A stretch of DNA of 64,000 nt, taken from positions 23,183 through 87,182 of the IMG/VR virus record IMGVR_UViG_3300035670_000113; one strand, written 5' to 3'. The translations under genes were made by a program, and so were the position numbers. The notes under the pieces were generated by a model. That model was not told where the DNA came from, did not search any database, and saw nothing but the letters and a program-made list of their open reading frames with translations. Below are positions 11,252 through 26,509 of the stretch, in pieces; position 1 is the stretch's first letter; every line of letters begins with the position of its first letter. This stretch comes from a virus.

Positions 11252-13030
11252 CTATGCTACATCACAAAATGAAAACCCACAATCTGGATCTGAACACTTG
11301 GAGCACCCACTCTCATGAATAAGAGGTTTTTCACAAACAGGGCACATATCTTTTTTGATATTCTTTGGTTTCAGTACTTCTATATCTCTAGACCCATTTC
11401 TATAAACTGTTATACCTTTTACTCCCAATTTCCATGCATATAAAAAGGACTCATATATAGTATCTTTGTCTGTTGAGTTGGGGAAATTTATAGTCTTACT
11501 CACACCACTATCAACAAATTTTTGGGCTGTGGCTTGTGTCTCAATGTGCTCTTGCCATGTGACCTCAACCGCTCCATTTGAGGATACTGAGCATCTATAC
11601 CAGGGGAGTTTTGAAAGCTCTGTATGGTCAAACTCATATTCTCCAGTCTTATCCTCTCTTTTCGTAAGATCAGAGAAGAATGGCTCGATACCTGAGTTGC
11701 ATCCTGCTATCAAACTTATAGTACCAGTTGGGGCTATAGTCAATAGAGTGATATTTCTTCTTGGATTTGGAAGTACAGAGCACGACTTTGGAACTCCTCT
11801 CTCTTCACCGAGGGTTATGGACTCTTCAGTGGCTATTGTTCTAATGAACGATAATATAAAAGCAAGCTCTTCATTAGCCTGTCTGGAGCCATATGCTACA
11901 CCCCTGAGTAAATAATAGTCAGCTAAGCCCATAATTCCAAGACCTATAGGTCTATTCTCTTCGGACCATCTGGCAATATCATTAGTGGGGTATGAAGATA
12001 CACTAACTACATCATCTAAAAACCTCACTGATAATCTAACTGCTAATTCCAGCATCTCAACATTAATGGAGTTATCATCTCTCAGAAACTTTGAAATATC
12101 CAAACTCCCAAGATTGCATACACCATTAGGCGGAAGTGGTTGTTCTCCACACGGGTTAGTAGCTTGTATCACCTGCCCAGAAAACCTATAAGGGGAATTA
12201 TTAATTTGGTCAAAAAATAGGATTCCAGGTTCACCATTTTTCCATGCGCTATCAACAATTAACCTAAAAAGATGTCCGACACTTAAAACATATGTATCTG
12301 GATGAACGTGTTTTAGATCCTCCTCCAACATTACTGTTGGGTAATAGATTCCTGGACCTGGATCACGCAGTAAGTATCCTTCCCCCCAACCATCAAAAAA
12401 TACCCTGTGTGGCTTATCAGGAGTACTTTTTACCGCCTCCATGAAAGAATCGTCAACAACTACTGATATATTGGTTGTTCTCATGACACCTTCCGTACTT
12501 TTGGCATTAATAAACTCCATTATATCTGGATGGTATACGCTCATTGTACCCATCATGGCCATTTCCCTGAAACCAGCCTGTGTCATAACTTCCATATCGT
12601 GACATATTGTATTAAAAAATGCTACAGGCCCACCAGCATATCCGTGAGTACTGCCATTGACAAGAGATTTTTTAGGTCTAAGATTTGATAAAGTGGTCCC
12701 ACAACCACCACCCTTCTTGGCTATAAGAGCGAAATCCAGCTTTGTTTTATAAATGCTTTCGATACTATCCTTAAAGTCTACTACAAAACATGCCGACAAT
12801 CCACCACCTACAGTCCCTGAATTGAAAAGACATGGGCTATTAGGAATAAAGTACCTGTTTGCTATCATCTCCCTTGTAAGGGCTTTTGTAGTAGGGTCTT
12901 CATACACCATAACATGATTAACAACTCTGTCAGCAATATCCTCCCAAGACTTTTCACCCTTTTTAAAATACCGCTTGTGTAGAATATTCATTGCGGTATC
13001 TGTAATATCATTTACTTTAAAAAATACCAT
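11252..13030 (-). CDS. nrdJ: class II (adenosylcobalamin-dependent) ribonucleotide reductase
   Basis: PNSPCL, SACFV, GGGCG, NGEPG, TNPCGEQPL, CNLGS, IAPTGTIS, SKTIN, C-terminal Cys cluster; no beta subunit nearby. Confidence 0.88.
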   Translation of the reverse strand: MVFFKVNDITDTAMNILHKRYFKKGEKSWEDIADRVVNHVMVYEDPTTKALTREMIANRYFIPNSPCLFNSGTVGGGLSACFVVDFKDSIESIYKTKLDFALIAKKGGGCGTTLSNLRPKKSLVNGSTHGYAGGPVAFFNTICHDMEVMTQAGFREMAMMGTMSVYHPDIMEFINAKSTEGVMRTTNISVVVDDSFMEAVKSTPDKPHRVFFDGWGEGYLLRDPGPGIYYPTVMLEEDLKHVHPDTYVLSVGHLFRLIVDSAWKNGEPGILFFDQINNSPYRFSGQVIQATNPCGEQPLPPNGVCNLGSLDISKFLRDDNSINVEMLELAVRLSVRFLDDVVSVSSYPTNDIARWSEENRPIGLGIMGLADYYLLRGVAYGSRQANEELAFILSFIRTIATEESITLGEERGVPKSCSVLPNPRRNITLLTIAPTGTISLIAGCNSGIEPFFSDLTKREDKTGEYEFDHTELSKLPWYRCSVSSNGAVEVTWQEHIETQATAQKFVDSGVSKTINFPNSTDKDTIYESFLYAWKLGVKGITVYRNGSRDIEVLKPKNIKKDMCPVCEKPLIHESGCSKCSDPDCGFSFCDVA

Positions 13031-16998: not shown

Positions 16999-17223
16999 TC
17001 ATTTGTTTCCCCTTAAATATCTAGTTAAAGTTCTAGTAAGAGTGTCTGACAACAGATCATCATCTTTAGTATACAGAAAATTTATCAATCGGTTTAGGTC
17101 TGGTTTAGATAGTGGCACATAAATTAATTCATGTGCATCTCTACATTGGTCTGCTTTAAACTCTGTAGGGAACTCCTTTTCACAATAACTGCAATACCAC
17201 TTGTCTTTTTTATTAATAGCCAC
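16999..17223 (-). CDS. small zinc-finger protein
   Basis: CSYC...F......C...H. Confidence 0.6.
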   Translation of the reverse strand: MAINKKDKWYCSYCEKEFPTEFKADQCRDAHELIYVPLSKPDLNRLINFLYTKDDDLLSDTLTRTLTRYLRGNK

Positions 17224-17647
17224 CAGTACCTACCTGTTCAACCTGTATCATATAAATACCACTCAATGCCTTTGAACACTCCTCAAACAGTCTACACAGA
17301 ATATCATTACTGGAGTTTTTATTGATTGTAAAAGGAAACTTTACAGTCACCTTTTTTTGTCCATGTGAACTAAAACATTTACAGGAATATTTAATCATTA
17401 TGCTCCTTTCATTAGAAACACTGTCATTGCGGCTGTACCTACTACTAGAAAAATCTCCCATGTTGCAAGGATGTAGGCATCATATACAGTTGTAGTACCA
17501 GTAACAATTCTTTTGTAAATACTTTTTAGTAACATAAAAATTTTCTCCTTCCACAGTATGAGCATCTCCATCCGTGCCCGTGATTATAAAACCATACATA
17601 AGCTCTGCAAACAGAGCAATACATCCATCTCTCTTTTACATTACTTG

Positions 17648-18283
17648 TCATGCGTTATTCTTCCTTGTTTCTGCAGTAAGATCAACAAAAGTCTCTGTTC
17701 TTCCCAAATCAAACCCATATGTTAGCCACATTGAGTGAAACTGTGCCGAAGAATATTTATAAATAAGTTGTGAAGGGATTTCATCTTTTCGTTCAAAAAT
17801 CGTATTTTCTCTGCTGTTTACTCTTGAAACAATATCTGGAGTAATGTATGCAATTCTGGATGTTGGAATAATTTTCTCACAACCTCTCTTTATCCAATTA
17901 ATAGATGTTGCAGAGTAATCAGCATTAATAAGAAATGCAAACGGCTTATTATATTCAAACGCTTTCTCAATAAATAGGTCCTTTATCGAGAATGGGGGAT
18001 TGGTTATAATACAGTCTATACTGGACAGCTCACTATCTTCCAAAGTTTCTGTTATAAAATTAAACTGCCTATCAATTATGTCTGGTTCAAATCGAATGTC
18101 TGTAGTATAAACACCGTATCTTTTAGTACCTTCCAAGCGCACGGCTATTTTACCACCACCCGCCGCACATTCCCAAATTGTGCCAACATTTTTAGGAATG
18201 AAGGGAATAAGTAAGTCAACAGCATAATTAGGCGTTTCAAATGTATCCCTGCCTTGCACGCTTTCGGGCGTTTTGGGGGGCAT
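17648..18283 (-). CDS. phage DNA adenine methyltransferase-like protein
   Basis: D.FETP.YAV, IWECAAG.G, IITNPPFS; start at MPPKT preferred. Confidence 0.8.
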   Translation of the reverse strand: MPPKTPESVQGRDTFETPNYAVDLLIPFIPKNVGTIWECAAGGGKIAVRLEGTKRYGVYTTDIRFEPDIIDRQFNFITETLEDSELSSIDCIITNPPFSIKDLFIEKAFEYNKPFAFLINADYSATSINWIKRGCEKIIPTSRIAYITPDIVSRVNSRENTIFERKDEIPSQLIYKYSSAQFHSMWLTYGFDLGRTETFVDLTAETRKNNA

Positions 18284-18356
18284 GGTAATGCCTTTTTTAG
18301 TGCGTAATTTGTAAGAAAATTCGGGCATTTTGGTGAAAATTCCTTTGCTTTAACCC

Positions 18357-18385
18357 TTGACAAATGGGTGATTTTGTGCTATAAT
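18357..18385 (+). promoter_or_regulatory. sigma70-type promoter driving the tRNA array
   Basis: ACCC-TTGACA-N17-TATAAT, extended -10 TG. Confidence 0.85.
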
Positions 18386-18425
18386 AGGCACATCGTTAGA
18401 AAGTAAATTACCCAACGATGAACCA

Positions 18426-18454
18426 ATTATACACCATTTTAATGATTTTGTCAA
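18426..18454 (-). promoter_or_regulatory. sigma70-type promoter for the leftward operon
   Basis: minus strand TTTACCC-TTGACA-N17-TATAAT. Confidence 0.85.
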
Positions 18455-18470
18455 GGGTAAAAAACAAAGT

Positions 18471-18542
18471 GCCTCGGTAGTTCAGTGGTAGAACATCATA
18501 CTTGTAATATGATTGTCAGAGGTTCGATTCCTCTTCGAGGCT
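18471..18542 (+). tRNA. tRNA-Thr(TGT)
   Basis: cloverleaf, anticodon loop CTTGTAA. Confidence 0.93.
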
Positions 18543-18667
18543 CCTAAGTGGTGTGGTCAACATTCTATGGAGAGATATTTCTCTAAAAATGACAAAGACC
18601 ATATATACAAAATCGTTGAGCCTGAGTAAGCCAACAGCCACAACTAGAGTATCAGAGAGGTAATAAT

Positions 18668-18898
18668 ATGGATGAAAAAGTCTACTCTGGTGTTATACAC
18701 GAGATTAAAGATGGTAAAGTACACCACTGCATAACCATCACTATAACACAATATAGTAACTCAAAAATGCCTGAGAAGATAGATGATGGCTTCAAGTTAA
18801 TTAGCAAGTCATCCAAGAAAGTTGGGTTTCTGGAAGTTAATGGAATTTACTTCTCTGGAACTGTACATACTTTTATATTCAAAAAGTATCTGGATTGA
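18668..18898 (+). CDS. hypothetical protein
   Basis: GAGG SD, lies between tRNAs. Confidence 0.6.
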   Translation: MDEKVYSGVIHEIKDGKVHHCITITITQYSNSKMPEKIDDGFKLISKSSKKVGFLEVNGIYFSGTVHTFIFKKYLD

Positions 18899-18901
18899 TA
18901 T

Positions 18902-18974
18902 GTATCCTTAGCTCATGTAGTAGAGCACCTTCCTGAAGAGAAGGGGGTGGCTAGTGCAAGTCTAGCAGGATACA
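18902..18974 (+). tRNA. tRNA-Phe(GAA)
   Basis: cloverleaf, loop CTGAAGA; atypical D loop and TGCAAGT T loop. Confidence 0.85.
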
Positions 18975-19007
18975 CAAGAGCAGTAATACACTGCTCGAAG
19001 GAGTACC

Positions 19008-19367
19008 ATGTTACCAAAGTATCACTATGAAATTGATGCTAACACTGGGAACGAAATTAAAGTTAGAAATTATCAATGCCCTACAGGTTGTAGTGTAGGC
19101 ATAGCAGACTATCTCTGCTTTACAATAAACACTGGTAAGGCCACAATTACTACAACACCTTCAAACCTATACAATGATACAGAGGAGTGTTTAAAGATTA
19201 TTATAAGAAATACTTCTAAAAAGACTGTAAAGATTGGAGGACCACTTTCACAGGATTTATCCCTGCTTCAAAATGCTGTAATAGAAATACCTATAAACAG
19301 TGTAAGTAAGGTATTTCTAAGAACTGATAGTGGTAGTACAATAGTAGAGTATATGATTTTAGGGTGA
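19008..19367 (+). CDS. hypothetical protein
   Basis: AAGGAG SD; beta-rich 119 aa. Confidence 0.7.
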   Translation: MLPKYHYEIDANTGNEIKVRNYQCPTGCSVGIADYLCFTINTGKATITTTPSNLYNDTEECLKIIIRNTSKKTVKIGGPLSQDLSLLQNAVIEIPINSVSKVFLRTDSGSTIVEYMILG

Positions 19368-19373
19368 GTTACT

Positions 19374-19444
19374 GGGCGATTGATGTAACGGGAGCCTGAT
19401 TGCTTTGCAAGCAATTCGTAAGAGTTCGATTCTCTTATCGTCCA
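19374..19444 (+). tRNA. tRNA-Ala(TGC)
   Basis: loop TTTGCAA; G3:U70 pair present. Confidence 0.88.
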
Positions 19445-19445
19445 C

Positions 19446-19655
19446 TAGTCTAATAGCATCGGCTGAGAAACTAGGACAACACTCAGTTTGTTGCCCAGGC
19501 AATAAGTACGGTAGTCATCGAAGGTAATCTGCAAAGATATTCCTCCTAGTAGTAAGAGGTAATCCCTGATGGCAAAAGGAGTGAGTTTGCTACAATAACA
19601 ATAATCTCCGCCTACAAGAAAGGGTAAGCCGACCTGTAAAGTGTAAGCAGGATTA
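19446..19655 (+). ncRNA. candidate structured ncRNA (~210 nt)
   Basis: fills the Ala-His spacer; TCGGCT/AGCCGA long-range pairing and 3' CCTG/CAGG hairpin. Confidence 0.4.
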
Positions 19656-19656
19656 T

Positions 19657-19729
19657 GGTGGCTAGCGTATAAATGGTAGTACACTCGTCTGTGAAACGAG
19701 AGGTGAGGGATCGTTACCCTCTGGCCGCC
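19657..19729 (+). tRNA. tRNA-His(GTG)
   Basis: loop CTGTGAA; G-1:C73; T loop ATCGTTA. Confidence 0.9.
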
Positions 19730-19764
19730 CCTTGAGCTTTAAGGCTCAGAGAAAGGGATAACCA

Positions 19765-19950
19765 ATGTTAGCTGTCTTGTACGTTTCAATCAGTATAGGT
19801 GTATTTATAGCATACTTACTTGATATGGAAGGGCCTTTTGAAGGACTGCCAAAAACAATTTTTAATATACTAGGAAACTTTGTTGAGGCGTTCTTCTGGC
19901 CCATCACACTTTACATGCATATCTTTAAAAAGATTTGGGGTGATGAATGA
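19765..19950 (+). CDS. small membrane protein
   Basis: two hydrophobic segments, FFWP. Confidence 0.65.
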   Translation: MLAVLYVSISIGVFIAYLLDMEGPFEGLPKTIFNILGNFVEAFFWPITLYMHIFKKIWGDE

Positions 19951-20147
19951 AAAAAGACGCATTTCAAGTAGGCTACGATGTAAAAAGTAGTGTAATCACT
20001 GTTTTATCTCTGATTGGAATGATAGTATTATGTGTTGGAGCATTTTTAATTATATCATTTTTTGCTACACAGTTTCAATACTACACTCATCAGCCTGAGA
20101 TGAACTATGTTGTATCAATTCCAAAAACAATTATAGGAGCACACTAA
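19947..20147 (+). CDS. small membrane protein
   Basis: one long hydrophobic segment; ATGA overlap. Confidence 0.65.
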   Translation: MKKDAFQVGYDVKSSVITVLSLIGMIVLCVGAFLIISFFATQFQYYTHQPEMNYVVSIPKTIIGAH

Positions 20148-20248
20148 TGAGAACTAAAATCGCTTGGTGCAAAAGATGTAATTCATATAGAGTCTTTATT
20201 AAGATTGGATCTATTTGGAACTGCAGAGTTTGCGGAGAACAAAAATAG
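20147..20248 (+). CDS. 33 aa zinc-ribbon peptide
   Basis: own translation MRTKIAWCKRCNSYRVFIKIGSIWNCRVCGEQK; TAATG coupling, AGGAG SD. Confidence 0.65.
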   Translation: MRTKIAWCKRCNSYRVFIKIGSIWNCRVCGEQK

Positions 20249-20254
20249 AAAGAT

Positions 20255-20327
20255 GCTCCTATCTTCTAATGGACAGGAAACTAGACTCTCAATCTAGGAA
20301 TCGTGGGTTCAACTCCCCGTAGGAGCA
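20255..20327 (+). tRNA. tRNA-Glu(CTC)
   Basis: loop CTCTCAA. Confidence 0.88.
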
Positions 20328-20371
20328 CACAAATATAAAATGTTCTTTTGGTATAATATATAGGAGATAGA

Positions 20372-20494
20372 ATGTTAAACTTAATAAGAAACTTCATTAA
20401 GGCATACAAAGAAGCATGGCTTGAAGAGAAGGTTATCTTTATAGCCCTGTGCATATTCTTTATTGTTATCGTAGTTTTAGAAACCAGATTTTAG
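20372..20494 (+). CDS. 40 aa single-TM peptide
   Basis: own translation; AGGAG SD; VIFIALCIFFIVIVVL. Confidence 0.65.
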   Translation: MLNLIRNFIKAYKEAWLEEKVIFIALCIFFIVIVVLETRF

Positions 20495-20502
20495 TGGTAA
20501 AT

Positions 20503-20575
20503 GCTCCCTTCGTCTAGTGGTTAGGACATCTCCCTTTCAAGGAGAAGATGGTGGGTTCGACCCCCACAGGGAGCA
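20503..20575 (+). tRNA. tRNA-Glu(TTC)
   Basis: loop CTTTCAA. Confidence 0.93.
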
Positions 20576-20593
20576 CTGAAGCATGTAAGACAT

Positions 20594-20666
20594 TGACGAC
20601 TAGTTCAATTGGCGGAACGCCTGTCTCTGGAACAGGAGGCTCCAGGTTCGATCCCTGGGTCGTCAG
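20594..20666 (+). tRNA. tRNA-Gln(CTG)
   Basis: U1:A72, loop CTCTGGA. Confidence 0.92.
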
Positions 20667-20846
20667 CTTGGGAGTGACAATGTTACTGTAGTAAAGTCTG
20701 CATACAAGTCCTTGTGGCTTAGACTCCCAAATCGAAAATCTGTAAATCCACTATGCATAATCCTGAATAGTGGATTTACAGGCTAATGGATAACATCTTC
20801 ACTACATCATATCTTATTATAATTGAGTACAAGAAAGGAAAAACTA

Positions 20847-21113
20847 ATGTATAAAATCGAGTTCGCTCATTTCCCTAACGAGGGTGGATCTGGAAAGTTT
20901 CAAGAAAATGGTAATACGCTCAAGTATGTTGGACATACTACGTGTGTAATCCTAAAAGGTGAAGAATTAATCTCCACTGGTAAAGCATTTTGTGGAGAAA
21001 AGGATAAGTATAACAAGGAAAAAGGTCGTAAAGTGGCTCTTTCCAGGGCTATTAAAAACCTTGATAGAGATACAAGAACCACTATTTGGAATGAGTACTT
21101 TTGCAGAAAGTAA
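20847..21113 (+). CDS. conserved phage hypothetical protein
   Basis: AFC..KD.YNK.KGR..AL.RA motif; GAAAGGA SD. Confidence 0.7.
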   Translation: MYKIEFAHFPNEGGSGKFQENGNTLKYVGHTTCVILKGEELISTGKAFCGEKDKYNKEKGRKVALSRAIKNLDRDTRTTIWNEYFCRK

Positions 21114-21122
21114 AATACTGAT

Positions 21123-21196
21123 GGGTCTGTAGCTCAATTGGCTAGAGCAAGTGCCTCTTAAGCATTAGGTTCAGAGTTCAAATCTCTGCAGACTCA
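21123..21196 (+). tRNA. tRNA-Lys(CTT)
   Basis: loop CTCTTAA. Confidence 0.93.
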
Positions 21197-21212
21197 CTTA
21201 AGGATATATAAG

Positions 21213-21479
21213 ATGTCATTACTTCAAGAAGTCAGAGACTATAAAGATGTTATTACTTTTGGTAAGTATAAAGGTCATACCTACAGATACATTATTGATA
21301 TTGACCCATCCTATATTGACTGGCTAGATTCCCAAGAAATTGTAAAACTTCCAGCAAGGATGATGAAAAAAGTATTACATAATAAAAAAGAAAATGACAT
21401 ATTCTACGATGTAGATATTAGTCATGCTGACGATGACATTATTAATGGTGGATGTGACCCGAATATGTGGGGGGATTAA
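21213..21479 (+). CDS. FGKYKG-motif protein (DUF3820-like)
   Basis: ITFGKYKG......DPSYIDWL. Confidence 0.7.
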   Translation: MSLLQEVRDYKDVITFGKYKGHTYRYIIDIDPSYIDWLDSQEIVKLPARMMKKVLHNKKENDIFYDVDISHADDDIINGGCDPNMWGD

Positions 21480-21499
21480 TACACCATAAATCATCTTAT

Positions 21500-21571
21500 G
21501 CTCCTGTAGGTTAATGGATAACCGCTTCGCTACGGACGAAGAATCTGCGAGTTCGATCCTTGCCAGGAGCT
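21500..21571 (+). tRNA. tRNA-Arg(ACG)
   Basis: loop CTACGGA. Confidence 0.92.
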
Positions 21572-21583
21572 CAGTTAAATAAT

Positions 21584-21670
21584 GGAGAGTTGGCCGAGCG
21601 GTAAGGCTCTCGTCTTGAAAACGAGTGACATCTGTAAAAGGGTGCAGGGGTTCAATTCCTCTACTCTCCG
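21584..21670 (+). tRNA. tRNA-Ser(TGA)
   Basis: loop CTTGAAA, long variable arm, G73. Confidence 0.93.
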
Positions 21671-21674
21671 CCTT

Positions 21675-21926
21675 GTATCACATTTAGTAAGCAATCTAAT
21701 CACAGAAGGTTGCTGAAAATCAAGTAAGAAAAGAAAGTCTTACATGCACCAGGCATACCATTAAGATGTATGTATACTATATTAAGTTTAACTGTGAGTG
21801 TGACTTATTATAGGGTTATCAGGCTGTGACGCTTGAGATTCTACCAAAAATTCAGGTAACGACTGGAAAATGGTAGACGGTTACTAGAATCCGATGCCTT
21901 GAAATAAGGTGAGTGCAGTGTGATAC
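21675..21926 (+). ncRNA. candidate structured ncRNA (252 nt)
   Basis: 10-bp terminal stem GTATCACATT/AGTGTGATAC, several internal hairpins, fills the Ser-Ser spacer. Confidence 0.6.
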
Positions 21927-21928
21927 TT

Positions 21929-22013
21929 GGAAGATTGCCCGACCGGTAAGGGCTCGGTTTGCTAAACCGAAGGCATCCGTAAGGGTGAATAGGTTCGATT
22001 CCTATATCTTCCG
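21929..22013 (+). tRNA. tRNA-Ser(GCT)
   Basis: loop TTGCTAA, long variable arm. Confidence 0.93.
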
Positions 22014-22059
22014 CCTAAAAGACTAATAAGACAAAGATTGTCAAATTTCAAATTTACCC

Positions 22060-22088
22060 TTGACATGGCAAACATGTTGTGGTATACT
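22060..22088 (+). promoter_or_regulatory. sigma70-type promoter
   Basis: TTTACCC-TTGACA-N17-TATACT, TGTGG extended -10. Confidence 0.85.
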
Positions 22089-22152
22089 AGGGGTATGTGG
22101 ACGAAATGACCACCCCGCCTTTGGTGCAAACTGGGAATGGAAGTCCACATTA

Positions 22153-22226
22153 GCAGAAGTGGTGAAGTGGTATAACACGCTCGTCTGATAAGCGAGTATA
22201 CGCAGGTCCGAATCCTGCCTTCTGCA
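22153..22226 (+). tRNA. tRNA-Ile(GAT)
   Basis: loop CTGATAA. Confidence 0.9.
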
Positions 22227-22227
22227 C

Positions 22228-22530
22228 TAATGTCTGTGTGCCAGACTATAAAAGAACGTCCTACGGTTGAAATGGGATGTGTGGAGGTCTAACATACACA
22301 GGCTGTAAGTAACTCTGTAGTGATATTGGCAGAAGAAGAGATGCAAATTAGACCAGCATCTACTGCGCTCACATTCGGTAGCAATTAAACATGGTTAGTA
22401 GGCGAATGTGTGGGGTAGACATCCCCCCAAGACGGTGATAATTACAGGCCAGTAATTTGAGTCTTGTGAACCAGAATAATCATAGACAGAGTGAAAGCTA
22501 GGAGGCCTTACAAGCTTCCCACAGACATTA
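22228..22530 (+). ncRNA. candidate structured ncRNA (303 nt)
   Basis: perfect 11-bp terminal stem TAATGTCTGTG/CACAGACATTA, fills the Ile-Ile spacer. Confidence 0.65.
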
Positions 22531-22534
22531 ACAT

Positions 22535-22607
22535 GCTCCAGTAACTCAATGGTCAGAGTACCGCTCTTATAAGGCGTTAGTTGTAGGTTCGACTCCTACT
22601 TGGAGCA
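22535..22607 (+). tRNA. tRNA-Ile(TAT)
   Basis: loop CTTATAA, full cloverleaf. Confidence 0.88.
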
Positions 22608-22621
22608 CAGAAAGGAAATCT

Positions 22622-22789
22622 ATGAACACTCATCCAACAGAAGGAGGTTTATTGAGATATCCTGAAACAGGTGGTTTTTACGAAGAGATTCCGTGTACTT
22701 GCAAGGAGGATTGTAACGATCCTTGTAGGGGAGAATGTGGTTGTAGAGCATGTGTTAATGCTTATATAGATGTCCTGGAGTATGATTAA
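22622..22789 (+). CDS. 55 aa Cys-rich peptide
   Basis: own translation ...PCTCKEDCNDPCRGECGCRAC...; GAAAGGA SD. Confidence 0.65.
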   Translation: MNTHPTEGGLLRYPETGGFYEEIPCTCKEDCNDPCRGECGCRACVNAYIDVLEYD

Positions 22790-22801
22790 AGGCAATGTAC
22801 A

Positions 22802-22861
22802 AGACTACGAACAGCAAACTAAAAAAATTTTCCAGTCAATGAAAAAAAATAAAAGTAGTCT
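22802..22861 (+). ncRNA. CAGCAA-motif RNA, copy 1
   Basis: AGACTAC-GA-ACAGCAA...TTTTC/GAAAA hairpin...GTAGTCT. Confidence 0.7.
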
Positions 22862-22866
22862 GTTTT

Positions 22867-22952
22867 GGGTAGAAGGCGAATATGGTTTGTCGCACCTGAC
22901 TGTAAATCAGACGAGGCTCGGCCTCATGCAAGTTCGACTCTTGCTCTGCCCA
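22867..22952 (+). tRNA. tRNA-Tyr(GTA)
   Basis: loop CTGTAAA, long variable arm. Confidence 0.9.
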
Positions 22953-23017
22953 CATGTATTATTAATATTAATATATATTCAGGAGATGTGTCTTATGTAC
23001 CAATATCAGGACACTCT

Positions 23018-23092
23018 GCAACCTTGATGGGAATTGGCATACCTGGGTCCCTCAAAAGCTCCCGTTTACTGGTTCGAATCCAGTAGGTTGCA
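23018..23092 (+). tRNA. tRNA-Leu(CAA), atypical or degenerate
   Basis: intact acceptor and T arm, Leu-type D loop, loop CTCAAAA; mismatched anticodon stem and no long variable arm. Confidence 0.6.
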
Positions 23093-23113
23093 CTTATTGG
23101 CACTGCAATAAAA

Positions 23114-23190
23114 GCTCCCTTAGCTCAATTGGACAGAGCACTTCGGTCCTAACGAAGAGGTCACAGGTTCAAATCCTGTAGAGAGCACCA
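23114..23190 (+). tRNA. tRNA-Arg(CCT)
   Basis: loop GTCCTAA; encoded CCA. Confidence 0.9.
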
Positions 23191-23204
23191 AGAAAGGAGA
23201 TGCT

Positions 23205-23396
23205 ATGAAAATTTTTATGGTGATAATATACTTTCCATTGTTTGTAGTATTCTTTCCCTGGATTGTAGCATACAAACTTGCTATCAAAAATACACGTATT
23301 GATTATAATCTTAGTTATCCAATGACAATTATAGTCATAGGATATGTAGCTCAGATGGTTTATTTTGCAACGATTTTCTACGTGTTTTTGCATTAG
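23205..23396 (+). CDS. small two-TM membrane protein
   Basis: GAAAGGAG SD; hydrophobic. Confidence 0.7.
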   Translation: MKIFMVIIYFPLFVVFFPWIVAYKLAIKNTRIDYNLSYPMTIIVIGYVAQMVYFATIFYVFLH

Positions 23397-23402
23397 TAAA
23401 AT

Positions 23403-23488
23403 GCTCTTGTGGCGGAATTGGTAGACGCAACTGACTTAAAATCAGTCGGGAAATTAGTACCGTAAGGGTTCGAGTCCCTTCTTGAGCA
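23403..23488 (+). tRNA. tRNA-Leu(TAA)
   Basis: loop CTTAAAA, long variable arm; two U-U pairs in the acceptor stem. Confidence 0.88.
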
Positions 23489-23502
23489 CAGAAATGATAA
23501 AT

Positions 23503-23576
23503 GGCCCATTGGTCGAGATGGATAAGGCACTTCTCTGTCACGGAAGAAACCAGGGGTTCGAGTCCCCTATGGGCCG
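23503..23576 (+). tRNA. tRNA-Asp(GTC)
   Basis: loop CTGTCAC. Confidence 0.92.
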
Positions 23577-23613
23577 CCTTTAGTAAGTATTTATAAACAG
23601 TAAAAGGAGACTT

Positions 23614-23802
23614 ATGAAAACATTTTTAGTTCTATTAGGTATCTATATTACATTCGGATATGTATTTTCCATATCATATCTTTATGATGTATCAAGAACA
23701 TGGAACGCACATTTTGTAGGAAGAACAACACGAGAAGTTAAATTGATGGCCATTAAGAAAGCTATAATGATGGTTGTAATGTGGCCGGTTCTTTACAAAT
23801 AA
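23614..23802 (+). CDS. small membrane protein
   Basis: AAGGAG SD; two hydrophobic segments, ends in MWP. Confidence 0.7.
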   Translation: MKTFLVLLGIYITFGYVFSISYLYDVSRTWNAHFVGRTTREVKLMAIKKAIMMVVMWPVLYK

Positions 23803-23805
23803 GAT

Positions 23806-23876
23806 GGCTAGGTAAGCTAATGGTAAACTGCTGATCTCCAAAATCAGTTTTCAGGGTTCGAGTCCTTGTCTGGCCG
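23806..23876 (+). tRNA. tRNA-Trp(CCA)
   Basis: loop CTCCAAA. Confidence 0.9.
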
Positions 23877-23895
23877 CTATTAGAAAGGAGCATAT

Positions 23896-24066
23896 ATGAA
23901 TCAGTATCCTAAGGATTTACGTGATAAGCAACAGAAAAAGTTTTTAGAGAAGGGGGAAGAAGCCAGAAAAGAGTACCTGTTTCATAAGAAGTATAAGGTG
24001 GCTGTAAAACTGTCTGCACTGATTATATTCATTATGTTTATTATCAGAATCGTTATAGAAAATTAA
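23896..24066 (+). CDS. 56 aa tail-anchored membrane peptide
   Basis: own translation; GAAAGGAG SD; C-terminal LSALIIFIMFII. Confidence 0.65.
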   Translation: MNQYPKDLRDKQQKKFLEKGEEARKEYLFHKKYKVAVKLSALIIFIMFIIRIVIEN

Positions 24067-24077
24067 AAATTTATTAA

Positions 24078-24149
24078 TCCCGTCTAGCTCAATGGCAGAG
24101 CAGGAAGCTGTTAACTTCAAGGTTTGAGGTTCAAGTCCTCAGATGGGAG
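24078..24149 (+). tRNA. tRNA-Asn(GTT)
   Basis: loop CTGTTAA. Confidence 0.92.
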
Positions 24150-24153
24150 CTAA

Positions 24154-24227
24154 GGACTCGTAGTTCAGTTGGTTAGAATGTCTCTTTTACACAGAGAGGG
24201 TCGGGAGTTCGAGTCTCTCCGAGTCCA
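24154..24227 (+). tRNA. tRNA-Val(TAC)
   Basis: loop TTTACAC. Confidence 0.92.
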
Positions 24228-24253
24228 CCTATATCAAAAAGAAAGGATTCTCT

Positions 24254-24352
24254 ATGAAAGAAATCTACAAAAATCTCGATAATATTATCATATCCACTCT
24301 TATATTCATCACAGGAGTAGGCACGTTTCTGATGTTTAGATATGTTATCTAG
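24254..24352 (+). CDS. 32 aa single-TM peptide
   Basis: own translation MKEIYKNLDNIIISTLIFITGVGTFLMFRYVI; GAAAGGA SD. Confidence 0.6.
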   Translation: MKEIYKNLDNIIISTLIFITGVGTFLMFRYVI

Positions 24353-24357
24353 TATAG

Positions 24358-24428
24358 TCTCCTATCGTATAATGGAAGTATGCTTTGCTTTGAACAAAGA
24401 GGCCTCGGTTCAATTCCCTGTAGGAGAG
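24358..24428 (+). tRNA. tRNA-Gln(TTG)
   Basis: loop CTTTGAA; mismatches in the T stem. Confidence 0.8.
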
Positions 24429-24454
24429 CCTTTACACAATAGGAAGGAGTTATC

Positions 24455-24541
24455 ATGGCAATTCTAGTTTTGCTAGTTATTATTGTGGTACTTTTGTTTC
24501 TAGCCTACCTGTATTTATTCAAGAAATATTGGGACAAATGA
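24455..24541 (+). CDS. 28 aa single-TM peptide
   Basis: own translation MAILVLLVIIVVLLFLAYLYLFKKYWDK; AAGGAG SD. Confidence 0.65.
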   Translation: MAILVLLVIIVVLLFLAYLYLFKKYWDK

Positions 24542-24726
24542 AAACCATTAAGTATATTGACCCACCAGAAGGATGGAAATATGGATTTCCAAAAAAACTT
24601 CCTGATAAGATTAAGAATAAAGACATTAACAATTGGTTAATATCTCAAGGATATCCTAAGGAACTAATAGAATCCTATGGTGACAGTTTTATAGTAAGTT
24701 ACTGGACATCGAATAAGCCTCCATAA
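24538..24726 (+). CDS. conserved phage hypothetical protein
   Basis: IDPPEGWKYGFPK...WL...GYP motif; ATGA coupling; stop overlaps the tRNA-Lys 5' end. Confidence 0.7.
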   Translation: MKTIKYIDPPEGWKYGFPKKLPDKIKNKDINNWLISQGYPKELIESYGDSFIVSYWTSNKPP

Positions 24727-24790
24727 CTCAACTGGCTAGAGTATCTGCCTTTTAAGCAGGAAGTTCAGAGTTCAAATCTCTGTGGAGGCA
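24717..24790 (+). tRNA. tRNA-Lys(TTT)
   Basis: loop CTTTTAA. Confidence 0.92.
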
Positions 24791-24794
24791 CTAT

Positions 24795-24867
<73 letters not shown>

Positions 24868-24925
24868 CAATTATTAGAATTTCATTAGAATTGTGAAAGT
24901 CATATGAAATTGCCCCACTTTACCC

Positions 24926-24954
24926 TTGACAAAATTGAAATTTGATGGTATAAT
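24926..24954 (+). promoter_or_regulatory. sigma70-type promoter
   Basis: TTTACCC-TTGACA-N17-TATAAT. Confidence 0.85.
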
Positions 24955-24984
24955 AGGACATATAGGACGGCAGAAATAGGGCAT

Positions 24985-25063
24985 ATATTAATTAATATAT
25001 TAATTAATATATTAATTAATATATTAATTAATAAGCGGAATAATAAAATTTATTATTCCGCTT
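24985..25063. repeat. 4 x ATATTAATTAAT tandem repeat plus a 15-bp perfect inverted repeat
   Basis: repeats at 24985-25032; AAGCGGAATAATAAA-A-TTTATTATTCCGCTT at 25033-25063. Confidence 0.95.
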
Positions 25064-25113
25064 GATAAAAAAAAATAAAAAAAAAGAAGAAGAAAGTGAT
25101 TTTTATTTTACCC

Positions 25114-25142
25114 TTGACATATTTTAAAAATTGTGGTATAAT
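25114..25142 (+). promoter_or_regulatory. sigma70-type promoter
   Basis: TTTACCC-TTGACA-N17-TATAAT, TGTGG extended -10. Confidence 0.85.
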
Positions 25143-25175
25143 ATATACATAATAAAAAATGAAAGGAAGTAAAAA

Positions 25176-25418
25176 ATGATTCGTTCAAGTATTCACTCAA
25201 ACCAGTTTATTATTGCATCTGTCTATTACAGCGGTAAAACAGCTCATTTCTCTGTATCTGATAATCCTGTTATTCATGAGAGTTACTCAGAGGCTCTTAA
25301 GGAAGCTCAGCGTCTAGCATCTAAGTTTAATGGTAAAAAGTTTGTTGTACTTGCTATAGCCGCTATTGCTGAATTAGCTCCTGTAAGTACTCCGGTAATA
25401 ACCACTTATTCACTTTAG
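25176..25418 (+). CDS. conserved phage hypothetical protein
   Basis: H.SY.EA..EA.RLA....G..F.VL motif; GAAAGGA SD. Confidence 0.7.
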   Translation: MIRSSIHSNQFIIASVYYSGKTAHFSVSDNPVIHESYSEALKEAQRLASKFNGKKFVVLAIAAIAELAPVSTPVITTYSL

Positions 25419-25423
25419 TTTAC

Positions 25424-25711
25424 AAACATTGGTGACTGAAAGAAATCTTGACTTCGGGAACAAGGTATTTCCATAAGAATCATACTACATGGAAAGTAGG
25501 GAAGATAGGAAAGGGTAAGGTGCTGGTAAAGATATTCTTAGGACAGTAGAATTCCTAAGATCACAGGCAATGTGTATCTCACGAAGTTACACAGTACATG
25601 TAAAACCATGTCATCACGATAAAAAGAAATTGCTACTCTTTTTGTGATGTGACCGAATACCTGGAACTTCTATCATAATCTTGCAGTTAGTGACGCAACT
25701 GCCCAATGTTT
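25424..25711 (+). ncRNA. candidate structured ncRNA (288 nt)
   Basis: terminal stem AAACATTGG/CCAATGTTT, a run of internal hairpins, no ORF. Confidence 0.6.
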
Positions 25712-25717
25712 ATAAAT

Positions 25718-25792
25718 CGAGGAGTAGCTCAGTCCGGCTAGAGCACTTGCTTTGGGAGCAAGGGGTCGCAGGTTCAAATCCTGTTTCCTCGA
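25718..25792 (+). tRNA. tRNA-Pro(TGG)
   Basis: C1:G72, loop TTTGGGA. Confidence 0.94.
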
Positions 25793-25819
25793 CAGTACAT
25801 ATTTTCAAGGAGATATTAG

Positions 25820-25978
25820 ATGATTAATAAAAATCAAATTGTAACAATTATTCTATCAGTAATTTTACTGGGTGCTGGAATTGCTACTTTTGTAGTGACC
25901 AAGAATGATGCACTTTCAAATGAGCTTATGATTGGGTCTATGATATTTGTAGTGATTACCTTATTTCTAAAACAGTAG
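25820..25978 (+). CDS. 52 aa two-TM peptide
   Basis: own translation; AAGGAG SD. Confidence 0.65.
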   Translation: MINKNQIVTIILSVILLGAGIATFVVTKNDALSNELMIGSMIFVVITLFLKQ

Positions 25979-25984
25979 ATTGAT

Positions 25985-26040
25985 TGATTGCTTACAGCAA
26001 ATACTACTCTTTGGCTTCATGTCAAGTATAGGGGCAATCA
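25985..26040 (+). ncRNA. CAGCAA-motif RNA, copy 2
   Basis: TGATTGC-TT-ACAGCAA...TTGG-CTTCATG-TCAA...GCAATCA. Confidence 0.7.
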
Positions 26041-26052
26041 GTAAAATAACTT

Positions 26053-26124
26053 AGCGGGTGGTGGGCAAGGAGTCCAAAGAGCCTCATAAGCTCTTATAGC
26101 ACAATTCAATTTTGTGACCCGCTA
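26053..26124 (+). tRNA. tRNA with CAT anticodon (Met or Ile2), atypical
   Basis: acceptor AGCGGGT/ACCCGCT, loop CTCATAA; short D loop, T stem CACAA/TTGTG. Confidence 0.75.
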
Positions 26125-26127
26125 CAT

Positions 26128-26183
26128 GGACTTCATACAGCAACTAATAAATTTTTTCATTTGGAGAAAAAAAACCGAAGTCC
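26128..26183 (+). ncRNA. CAGCAA-motif RNA, copy 3
   Basis: GGACTTC-AT-ACAGCAA...TTTTTTC-ATTTGGA-GAAAAAA...GAAGTCC. Confidence 0.7.
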
Positions 26184-26189
26184 GTATTT

Positions 26190-26302
26190 GCCGAGATAGC
26201 TCAATGGTAGAGCACTAAAAAATTTTAGTCAGTAGATTAGTATCAGCAATAACTATAACCTTTGCAGGGTAGTGGTTCTAGGTTCGACTCCTAGTCTCGG
26301 CA
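26190..26302 (+). ncRNA. tRNA-like RNA with a 41-nt CAGCAA-motif insertion (copy 4)
   Basis: intact acceptor, D and T arms; insertion at 26218-26258 in the 5' strand of the anticodon stem. Confidence 0.8.
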
Positions 26303-26431
26303 CTAGTCACATAGGAATATGTGACTCCCACAAGCCCATTGGCGGTGCAAACCAATTAAAAAACACTTCAGAGTTTTTACCGCATAGATTTTCTCAAGGA
26401 CAAAAAAATCTATGCACACTTATATAGATTT

Positions 26432-26502
26432 GAGGCTATGGTCTATGGGTTGGGCCTCTGCCTTCCAAGCAGATGAACTGAGTTCGAGTCTCAGTAGCCT
26501 CT
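26432..26502 (+). tRNA. tRNA-Gly(TCC)
   Basis: loop CTTCCAA, U73. Confidence 0.88.
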
Positions 26503-26509
26503 TAAGTTA

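Follow-up and report, generated by a model that had tools for sequence, protein, structure and literature searches.

The 64,000-nucleotide (nt) stretch of DNA analyzed here, referred to as the window, comprises positions 23183-87182 of IMG/VR record IMGVR_UViG_3300035670_000113, a virus genome of 87,182 bp that is complete and has direct terminal repeats, and the DNA sequencing runs that contain it belong to one study with the source labels subsurface metagenome and soil metagenome. Between 18.4 and 28.5 kb of the window lies an array of 27 transfer RNA (tRNA) genes called by ARAGORN, all on the + strand (about 29 tRNA genes in total once the Rfam matches are added), in which the tRNAs alternate with small open reading frames (ORFs) that have good ribosome-binding sites. 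One interval of this array, located between two tRNA-Ile genes, is occupied by a 303-nt element (22228-22530) whose ends are perfectly complementary. A preliminary description of the sequence had proposed this element to be an uncharacterized structured non-coding RNA released by tRNA processing. The features of the locus are listed below, with helices taken from the predicted minimum-free-energy (MFE) fold unless stated otherwise.

22060-22088, + strand: sigma-70-type promoter, TTGACA, 17 nt, TATACT, with TG before the -10 (11/12 matches, extended -10)
22097-22148, + strand: leader hairpin GTGGAC...GTCCAC, ending 4 nt before tRNA-Ile(GAU) (predicted, in-context fold of 22097-22620)
22153-22227, + strand: tRNA-Ile(GAU) with no encoded CCA (ARAGORN; Rfam tRNA model, 65.0 bits at 22153-22226)
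22228-22530, + strand: 303-nt stem-closed element, a four-way junction of 88 predicted base pairs
22228-22238, + strand: 5' strand of the closing helix P1, TAATGTCTGTG (read from the sequence)
22243-22290, + strand: 5' hairpin domain, in which AGACT/GGTCT closes ACGTCCTA/TGGGATGT, with 3 G-U pairs (mean pair probabilities 0.73 and 0.92)
22301-22499, + strand: central arm, with stems GGCT/AGCT, ACTCTGT/ACAGAGT and GTGAT/ATCAT leading to a multiloop with four hairpins
22501-22519, + strand: 3' hairpin GGAGGC (22501-22506), loop CTTACAA (22507-22513), GCTTCC (22514-22519) (mean pair probability 0.97)
22520-22530, + strand: 3' strand of P1, CACAGACATTA, the perfect 11-bp complement of TAATGTCTGTG
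22531-22534, + strand: unpaired linker ACAT, which places U at -1 relative to the expected RNase P site (read from the sequence, with the cleavage presumed from established RNase P behavior)
22535-22608, + strand: tRNA-Ile(UAU), starting at G22535 (ARAGORN; Rfam tRNA model, 65.2 bits)

The promoter sits 140 nt upstream of the element and, judging from its position, transcription would probably start near 22097. No terminator-like site was found on the + strand of 17500-29000. The acceptor stem of tRNA-Ile(GAU) extends to 22225 and is followed by the discriminator A22226, which leaves C22227 as the sole base before the element, and only the four bases ACAT lie between the element and tRNA-Ile(UAU). 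The spacer between the two tRNA-Ile genes is thus filled except for these 1 + 4 nt, much as the preliminary description had stated. The architecture that it had outlined was likewise recovered: the 11-bp closing stem (22228-22238 with 22520-22530) is perfect, the 3' hairpin with its 7-nt loop is separated by 0 nt from the 3' strand of P1 and includes one G-U pair, and the four internal helices that had been named are all present in the MFE fold, with mean pair probabilities of 0.99 for CACATTCG/CGAATGTG, 0.95 for AGATGC/GCATCT, 0.59 for AATTAC/GTAATT and 0.54 for CAAGAC/GTCTTG. The four arms of the predicted junction are P1, the 5' hairpin domain, the long central arm and the 3' hairpin. P1 is formed with pair probabilities of 0.885-0.998 in a fold that includes both tRNAs, while the helix 22312-22318/22486-22492 and the hairpin stem 22370-22377/22403-22410 both reach 0.99. 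The multiloop of the central arm carries its hairpins at 22329-22366, 22370-22410, 22412-22426 and 22428-22466, among which the stems 22329-22332/22363-22366 (0.30) and 22412-22415/22423-22426 (0.35) are weak. A joint fold of 22097-22620 resolves into four independent modules, namely the leader hairpin, the two cloverleaves and the element itself.

Several of these properties are quite rare by chance or in comparable spacers. A perfect end helix of at least 11 bp between the first and last 30 nt was obtained in just 2 of 20,000 mononucleotide shuffles of the spacer. We also surveyed 60 inter-tRNA spacers of 120-700 nt, 16 from the window and 44 from the loci of 10 relatives, and an 11-bp end helix was present in two of them, the element and a spacer from a related locus (L019:11923-12083); 52 of the remaining spacers had ≤6 bp and six had 7-8 bp. 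The + strand MFE is -88.0 kcal/mol, as compared with -75.2 ± 5.2 kcal/mol for 100 dinucleotide shuffles (z -2.49), and none of the 100 shuffles folded as well, so that the folding energy, for which the preliminary description had proposed exactly this comparison, exceeds chance, if modestly. The - strand reaches -78.7 kcal/mol (z -1.94). Ten of the 88 pairs are G-U pairs, which are possible on the + strand only, and the helices that contain them vanish on the - strand, those of the 5' hairpin domain included. The GC content of the element is 0.436 versus 0.367 for the window, and the value for its whole spacer (0.433) is the highest among the 19 spacers of at least 100 nt (range 0.286-0.433), with ORF-bearing spacers mostly falling at 0.29-0.36.

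There is also no apparent coding capacity. The longest + strand ORF in the element's spacer has 22 codons, and the only frames on the - strand begin with TTG, are 39 and 31 aa long and run antisense to all of their surroundings, in agreement with the earlier statement that the element contains no ORF of 60 aa or more. Because every + frame carries 5-11 stops, with TAA, TAG and TGA all represented, we also rejected a recoded or short ORF. For comparison, 12 of the 19 spacers of at least 100 nt contain an ORF of at least 32 aa, and 10 of these 12 ORFs are ATG-started behind a purine-rich Shine-Dalgarno-like stretch. The element is single-copy in the 87,182-bp genome. In build, it is a stem-closed cassette, i.e. 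a non-coding segment of a tRNA operon that is flush with the expected processing sites of its neighbors and has its own closed fold. Two smaller sequence features were considered and set aside. The tetramer AGAC occurs in 6 copies, and 49 of 20,000 shuffles had at least as many, which is not significant once it is corrected for AGAC being 1 of 256 tetramers; and about two matches like the 7-nt complementarity between the loop TTAGACC (22348-22354) and GGTCTAA (22286-22292) are expected by chance.

None of the Rfam families accounts for the element. An Rfam cmscan with all 4227 families gave 0 hits in 22228-22530 at the gathering score; at E≤10, an 11-kb scan gave 0 hits inside the element, and a scan of 471 nt with the laxest filters gave no hit in the element either, its only hit being OxyS (12.5 bits, E 4.9). 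By Rfam covariance models, GOLLD, ROOL, Y RNAs, tmRNA, RNase P RNA, SRP RNA, 6S RNA, T-box and self-cleaving ribozymes were all negative, and a tRNA or tRNA-like identity was rejected, as the element has no RF00005 hit at E≤10 and no ARAGORN call. RAGATH-33 (RF03102) was discarded as well, since its model, run at E≤10 over all 87 kb of the genome, produced a single 8.3-bit chance hit elsewhere (G000 11964-12036) and none at the element or at 25419-25717. A description of its RNA did not turn up either in the literature on phage tRNA arrays, DUF2828, YrlA and T4, in a search that was not aimed at proving absence.

From these results, we judge the chances to be about even that the element is a functional, excised, stem-closed structured RNA within the phage tRNA operon. 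Since it lies flush between two tRNAs and behind a near-consensus promoter, release by tRNA-processing enzymes is naturally to be expected. Host RNA polymerase would begin at the promoter 22060-22088 and produce a single precursor comprising the leader hairpin, tRNA-Ile(GAU), the element and tRNA-Ile(UAU), followed by small ORFs and more tRNAs. RNase P cleavage at 22534/22535, which would generate the mature 5' end of tRNA-Ile(UAU), would at the same time define the 3' end of the element, whereas its 5' end would arise from 3' maturation of the CCA-less tRNA-Ile(GAU), either through a cut of the RNase Z/BN type behind the discriminator A22226 or through an endonuclease followed by trimming. 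The former type of cut is established for CCA-less phage and bacterial tRNAs. The product would be ~308 nt in length, its 11-bp helix being extended by just 1 nt at the 5' end and 4 nt at the 3' end, and this helix could stack on the neighboring 6-bp hairpin. Exonucleases require single-stranded 3' tails, and such near-tailless ends would offer them poor entry; thus, the RNA would be expected to persist as a compact four-way junction. If so, it would most likely have a trans-acting role in the infection, serving as a stable RNA scaffold or decoy.

A number of observations weigh against this interpretation, foremost among them the lack of relatives. The array also encodes a DUF2828+DUF7788 protein (26546-28015), and we used the DUF2828 protein to locate related phages. 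It has thousands of relatives, none of them >55% identical, which indicates that the collections hold no close kin of the phage; the top relatives are 50-55% identical and encoded on 87-93-kb contigs. The loci around DUF2828 relatives were collected from IMG/VR and JGI metagenomes in sets of 14, 80, 80 and 9, and the nearest loci covered by the searches were L019 (51%) and L179 (P0011), the latter from a complete 93.6-kb genome (52%). Separately, 711 GenBank phage records contain DUF2828 relatives, all <60% identical, from Escherichia, Mycobacterium, Salmonella, Vibrio, Listeria and other phages. A distant blastn search with 22100-22650 against 50,697 phage records returned no match, BLAST comparisons with 69 virus records from relatives (sets of 14, 5 and 50) gave only 14-26-nt chance matches or tRNA-Ile(UAU), and nhmmer with the element found nothing at E≤10 in 177 loci. 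A covariance model derived from the element's sequence alone and its MFE structure (R1; 303 positions, 88 pairs) recovered only itself when run over 163 of ~190 loci plus the window (presumed duplicates of included contigs and short contigs being left aside) and then over 17 whole records. The complete related genome to which L179 belongs, despite its 52%-identical DUF2828 protein, is without the element, and a likeness seen by eye between the element and L019:11923-12083 was rejected after local alignments to five ORF-free spacers gave z values of only -0.18 to +0.07. With no homologue found, there is no covariation for the element. The runs that contain the stretch are 3 DNA runs of the one study, with no RNA run among them, and the contigs of the three runs are identical across the element, so they contribute no variant. 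The fold itself is also less compelling than its closing helix: the z value of -2.49 is modest, given that six coding and other control stretches spanned -1.87 to +2.14, the MFE structure accounts for a fraction of 0.0001 of the ensemble, and four of its helices have pair probabilities of just 0.30-0.59. Lastly, the first and fifth bases of a T-loop are U and A by consensus, and the loop of the 3' hairpin, CTTACAA, has C in both places. Accordingly, the suggestion that this hairpin resembles a T-arm stacked on an acceptor stem holds for its topology, but not for its loop pattern, and the tRNA covariance model gave no hit in the element at E≤10. Much the same applies to the broader suggestion of a structured non-coding RNA, which is borne out with respect to a self-contained + strand fold that is neither protein-coding nor a tRNA, but not with respect to conservation.

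To place the closing helix of the element in context, we counted perfect helices of at least 7 bp upstream of 108 tRNAs having ≥80 nt of upstream sequence, taken from 17001-30000 of the window and from 12 related loci (L019, L020, L100, L101, L179, L182, L183, L013, L012, L109, L021 and L010). Those ending 3, 4, 5, 6 or 7 nt before the tRNA 5' end numbered 13, 14, 24, 24 and 16, respectively, as compared with a mean of 3.3 at offsets of 14-40, i.e. 4-7 times as many, although these counts are not independent events, because the phages are related and longer helices are counted at neighboring offsets, which is a further caution against the functional RNA interpretation. These arrays thus seem to follow a general rule by which a leader helix is placed right before the RNase P site, and there are spacers, including that of the element, that this helix encloses completely. 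One such case has comparative support, which distinguishes it from the element. This sister cassette (25419-25717; 299 nt) is ORF-free, end-paired and located upstream of tRNA-Pro, with a fold z of -1.8, and its homologue is a 308-nt spacer between tRNA-Lys(CTT) and tRNA-Phe (L019:18312-18619, in IMGVR_UViG_3300032046_000248). The two are related with an nhmmer E value of 8e-12 and a local-alignment z of 16.7, and 17 of their 45 RNAalifold consensus pairs are altered on both sides. The sister cassette has no Rfam hit, and a search of IMG/VR for its motif found only the contig of L019. Judging from these sequence comparisons, it appears to represent a genuine family of structured RNAs that has not been described, with two members found so far. 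As in the element, there is no ORF in either member, the ends pair into a closing helix, a 3' hairpin abuts the closing strand and the fit to the next tRNA is flush. Together with the helix counts, this sister family lends the RNA interpretation of the element some support at the level of its class. However, neither member detectably resembles the element in sequence (local-alignment z 0.05 for the sister cassette and -0.05 for its homologue), and a profile of the two gave no hit on the element.

Other spacers of these arrays are worth recording in their own right. A 256-nt ORF-free spacer between tRNA-Ser(TGA) and tRNA-Ser(GCT) (21673-21928) has an 8-9-bp end helix and no Rfam hit, and it folds far better than its shuffles do (z -5.35 for a set of 40 and -4.72 for a set of 200, with 0/200 as good). 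The L019:11923-12083 spacer mentioned above is 161 nt long, ORF-free and situated between tRNA-Gly(TCC) and tRNA-Arg(ACG); its perfect 11-bp end helix runs from the first base after the tRNA to 3 nt before the next, while its fold z is only -0.61. The same locus has a tRNA with the anticodon CTA (L019:12240-12311), which ARAGORN calls tRNA-Pyl and which is possibly an amber suppressor, and L179:12204-12272, located after tRNA-Asn, appears tRNA-like by eye, having acceptor-like ends and a GGTTCAAATCC T-arm, with no ARAGORN call.

The leader-helix pattern also speaks for an explanation in which the element serves only in cis, as a structural spacer that folds to prevent filler from mispairing with the tRNA-Ile precursors, keeps the processing sites exposed and is degraded after excision. 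End-pairing and helices before tRNA 5' ends are general in the arrays even though the sequences are unrelated, the 52-nt 5' leader is likewise a closed hairpin ending 4 nt before its tRNA, and the element is not conserved in any searched relative. We nevertheless consider this explanation unlikely, as other tRNAs of the array are just 3-20 nt apart, which argues that 303 nt are not required for processing, and a compact phage genome would be expected to shed mere filler. The raised GC content and the many perfect internal helices also speak against it, and the sister cassette keeps both sequence and structure across phages. A more skeptical explanation is that the element is non-functional DNA, such as a decayed gene or leftover spacer, whose structure stems from chance and local composition. 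Its orphan sequence would fit, as would its ill-defined overall fold and a z value that lies little beyond the -1.87 of a control. Against this stand the perfect helix placed exactly at the spacer ends, which shuffling so rarely reproduced, the strand bias with its G-U pairs, the highest GC content among the spacers, a modular fold that stays clean in context and the absence of an ORF remnant in any frame; for these reasons, non-functional DNA appears to us improbable.

A different possibility arises from the neighboring DUF2828+DUF7788 gene, located 4 kb downstream in the same array, as its product could be a Ro60-like DUF2828/vWA-type protein for which the element is a Y-RNA-like partner bound through its terminal helix. 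Some phage records label relatives of the DUF2828 protein as 'RNA-binding protein', and the DUF2828 gene of relatives is likewise flanked by tRNA arrays. Y RNAs are ~100-130 nt, i.e. the element is ~2-3x longer. PMC4201824 describes YrlA-type Y RNAs as having paired 5' and 3' ends, through whose helix they are bound, together with tRNA-like modules, and as being encoded near a Ro60-type gene, phages included; the motif GNCGAAN0-1G is placed there in the 5' strand of the paired-end stem. The element shares the pairing of its ends and the nearby Ro-like gene, and it contains the motif once (22401-22408). However, the motif is in the 3' strand of an internal hairpin, outside of the terminal stem, and was present in 2,908 of 20,000 shuffles, placing it at chance level. 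In addition, neither a T- or D-arm consensus nor a Y-RNA-type Rfam hit is present in the element, none of the 32 window matches of WCAGCAA fall in 22228-22530, these modules instead clustering before the DUF2828 gene, and DUF2828-bearing relatives exist without the element. Hence, we regard a Y-RNA-like role as very unlikely. Weak, sub-threshold Dicty_Class_I_RNA matches were noted at two of the ACAGCAA modules near the DUF2828 gene, 22803-22862 (28.7 bits, E 0.05) and 26129-26184 (26.8 bits, E 0.16). The least credible explanation would be an element acting at the DNA level, either a miniature inverted-repeat transposable element (MITE) or a recombination site, with 11-bp terminal inverted repeats that mimic an RNA stem. 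The repeats are indeed perfect and AC is found at both ends (22226-22227 and 22531-22532), a 1-in-16 coincidence, but the element is single-copy and its internal helices need + strand G-U pairs. A search for the inverted-repeat pattern with a 268-298-nt gap found 0 matches in IMG/VR and 2 in 596 Gb of prokaryote genomes, where ~1 is expected by chance, and both of these were unrelated inside (z -1.66 and +1.10). Other spacers are also end-paired with quite different sequences, and we therefore consider a DNA-level element extremely improbable.

If the element is indeed a functional excised RNA, its closest known counterparts are probably the RNA species I and II of phage T4 (rnaC, rnaD). These are small, stable non-coding RNAs that are cotranscribed with tRNAs and presumably excised by the tRNA-processing machinery, and at ~140 and ~120 nt they are both shorter than the 303 nt of the element. 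Like the element, they are non-coding and lie within a cluster of phage tRNA genes; both are placed in the T4 tRNA region by the legend to Figure 1 of PMC2330249. The likeness is drawn without a structure comparison, and blastn gave no match in the 50,697 phage records, among which T4 is assumed to be included. By this analogy, the element may be a so far orphan case of the stem-closed RNAs known from phage tRNA operons. A second comparison is provided by the leader-trailer stalks of bacterial ribosomal RNA (rRNA) operons, in which the flanks of a structured RNA pair and thereby join both processing sites. Such stalks comprise at least ~20 bp and are cleaved by RNase III, whereas the element has an 11-bp helix and ends that are expected from tRNA-processing enzymes. 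GOLLD and ROOL share with the element both ornateness and a location by phage tRNAs, but they are defined by Rfam covariance models, none of which hit the element. ROOL, too, is much larger than 303 nt. PMC12286853 describes GOLLD and ROOL as large multi-branched non-coding RNAs, often near phage tRNA islands, with GOLLD often >800 nt, which is consistent with the earlier remark that both occur by phage tRNAs and are larger than the element.

Phage tRNA arrays are usually viewed as codon-usage or anti-defence kits and the stretches between their tRNAs are ignored. Should elements of this sort be real RNAs, such arrays would also yield structured RNAs released through host tRNA-processing enzymes, and these would join GOLLD, ROOL, Y RNAs and T4 species I/II in the list of phage non-coding RNAs. 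To this list, the element would add one well-built orphan, whose value lies in being a further instance, alongside the conserved sister cassette 3 kb away, within a complete 87-kb genome that is open to synthesis or probing. A bolder proposal is that there is a new class of ~300-nt four-way-junction phage RNAs, with the element as the first one seen, that are cut from tRNA precursors by RNase P and RNase Z and act in trans in the course of infection. Their flush terminal helix would then serve for longevity, with the RNAs functioning, for example, as tRNA-shaped decoys against host nucleases that target tRNAs or as scaffolds for a phage RNA-binding protein. Taken as a whole, we find this proposal doubtful. 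If it were true, large phages would quite generally use their tRNA arrays to produce RNAs other than tRNAs.

The remaining features of the array and genome are as follows. Several near-identical consensus promoters, that at 22060-22088 among them, serve the array (repeat family D5), and the genes around it encode replication functions (DNA polymerase A, RecA, DnaB, ribonucleotide reductase and methylases) in addition to an ATP-grasp/amidoligase cluster and the DUF2828+DUF7788 protein. The genome is compact, which likewise favors a functional RNA, with 8.8% of the window lying outside of tRNAs and ORFs of at least 50 aa; gaps of at least 150 nt with neither a tRNA nor such an ORF number only 8 in the window, and 5 of these are in the tRNA array. 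Two additional tRNAs were found by Rfam and missed by ARAGORN, one at 20255-20327 (48.7 bits) and one at 26190-26302 (53.1 bits), the latter being 113 nt long, which implies an insert of ~40 nt. Near the right genome end (window 60910-63764) are stretches of 477, 567 and 1250 nt without an ORF of at least 50 aa on either strand. Within the array, ATAAGATG (21208-21215) is perfectly complementary to CATCTTAT (21492-21499), which is directly upstream of tRNA-Arg(ACG). ATAAGATG includes the start codon of an 88-aa ORF (21213-21479) with an ExoX-like C-terminal motif; thus, the start codon could be occluded by a spacer end helix, or the pairing could be due to chance. Finally, a perfect AT-rich palindrome with two 24-nt arms (24983-25033) is positioned between two 12/12 consensus promoters (24926 and 25114), and this segment resembles a regulatory region.

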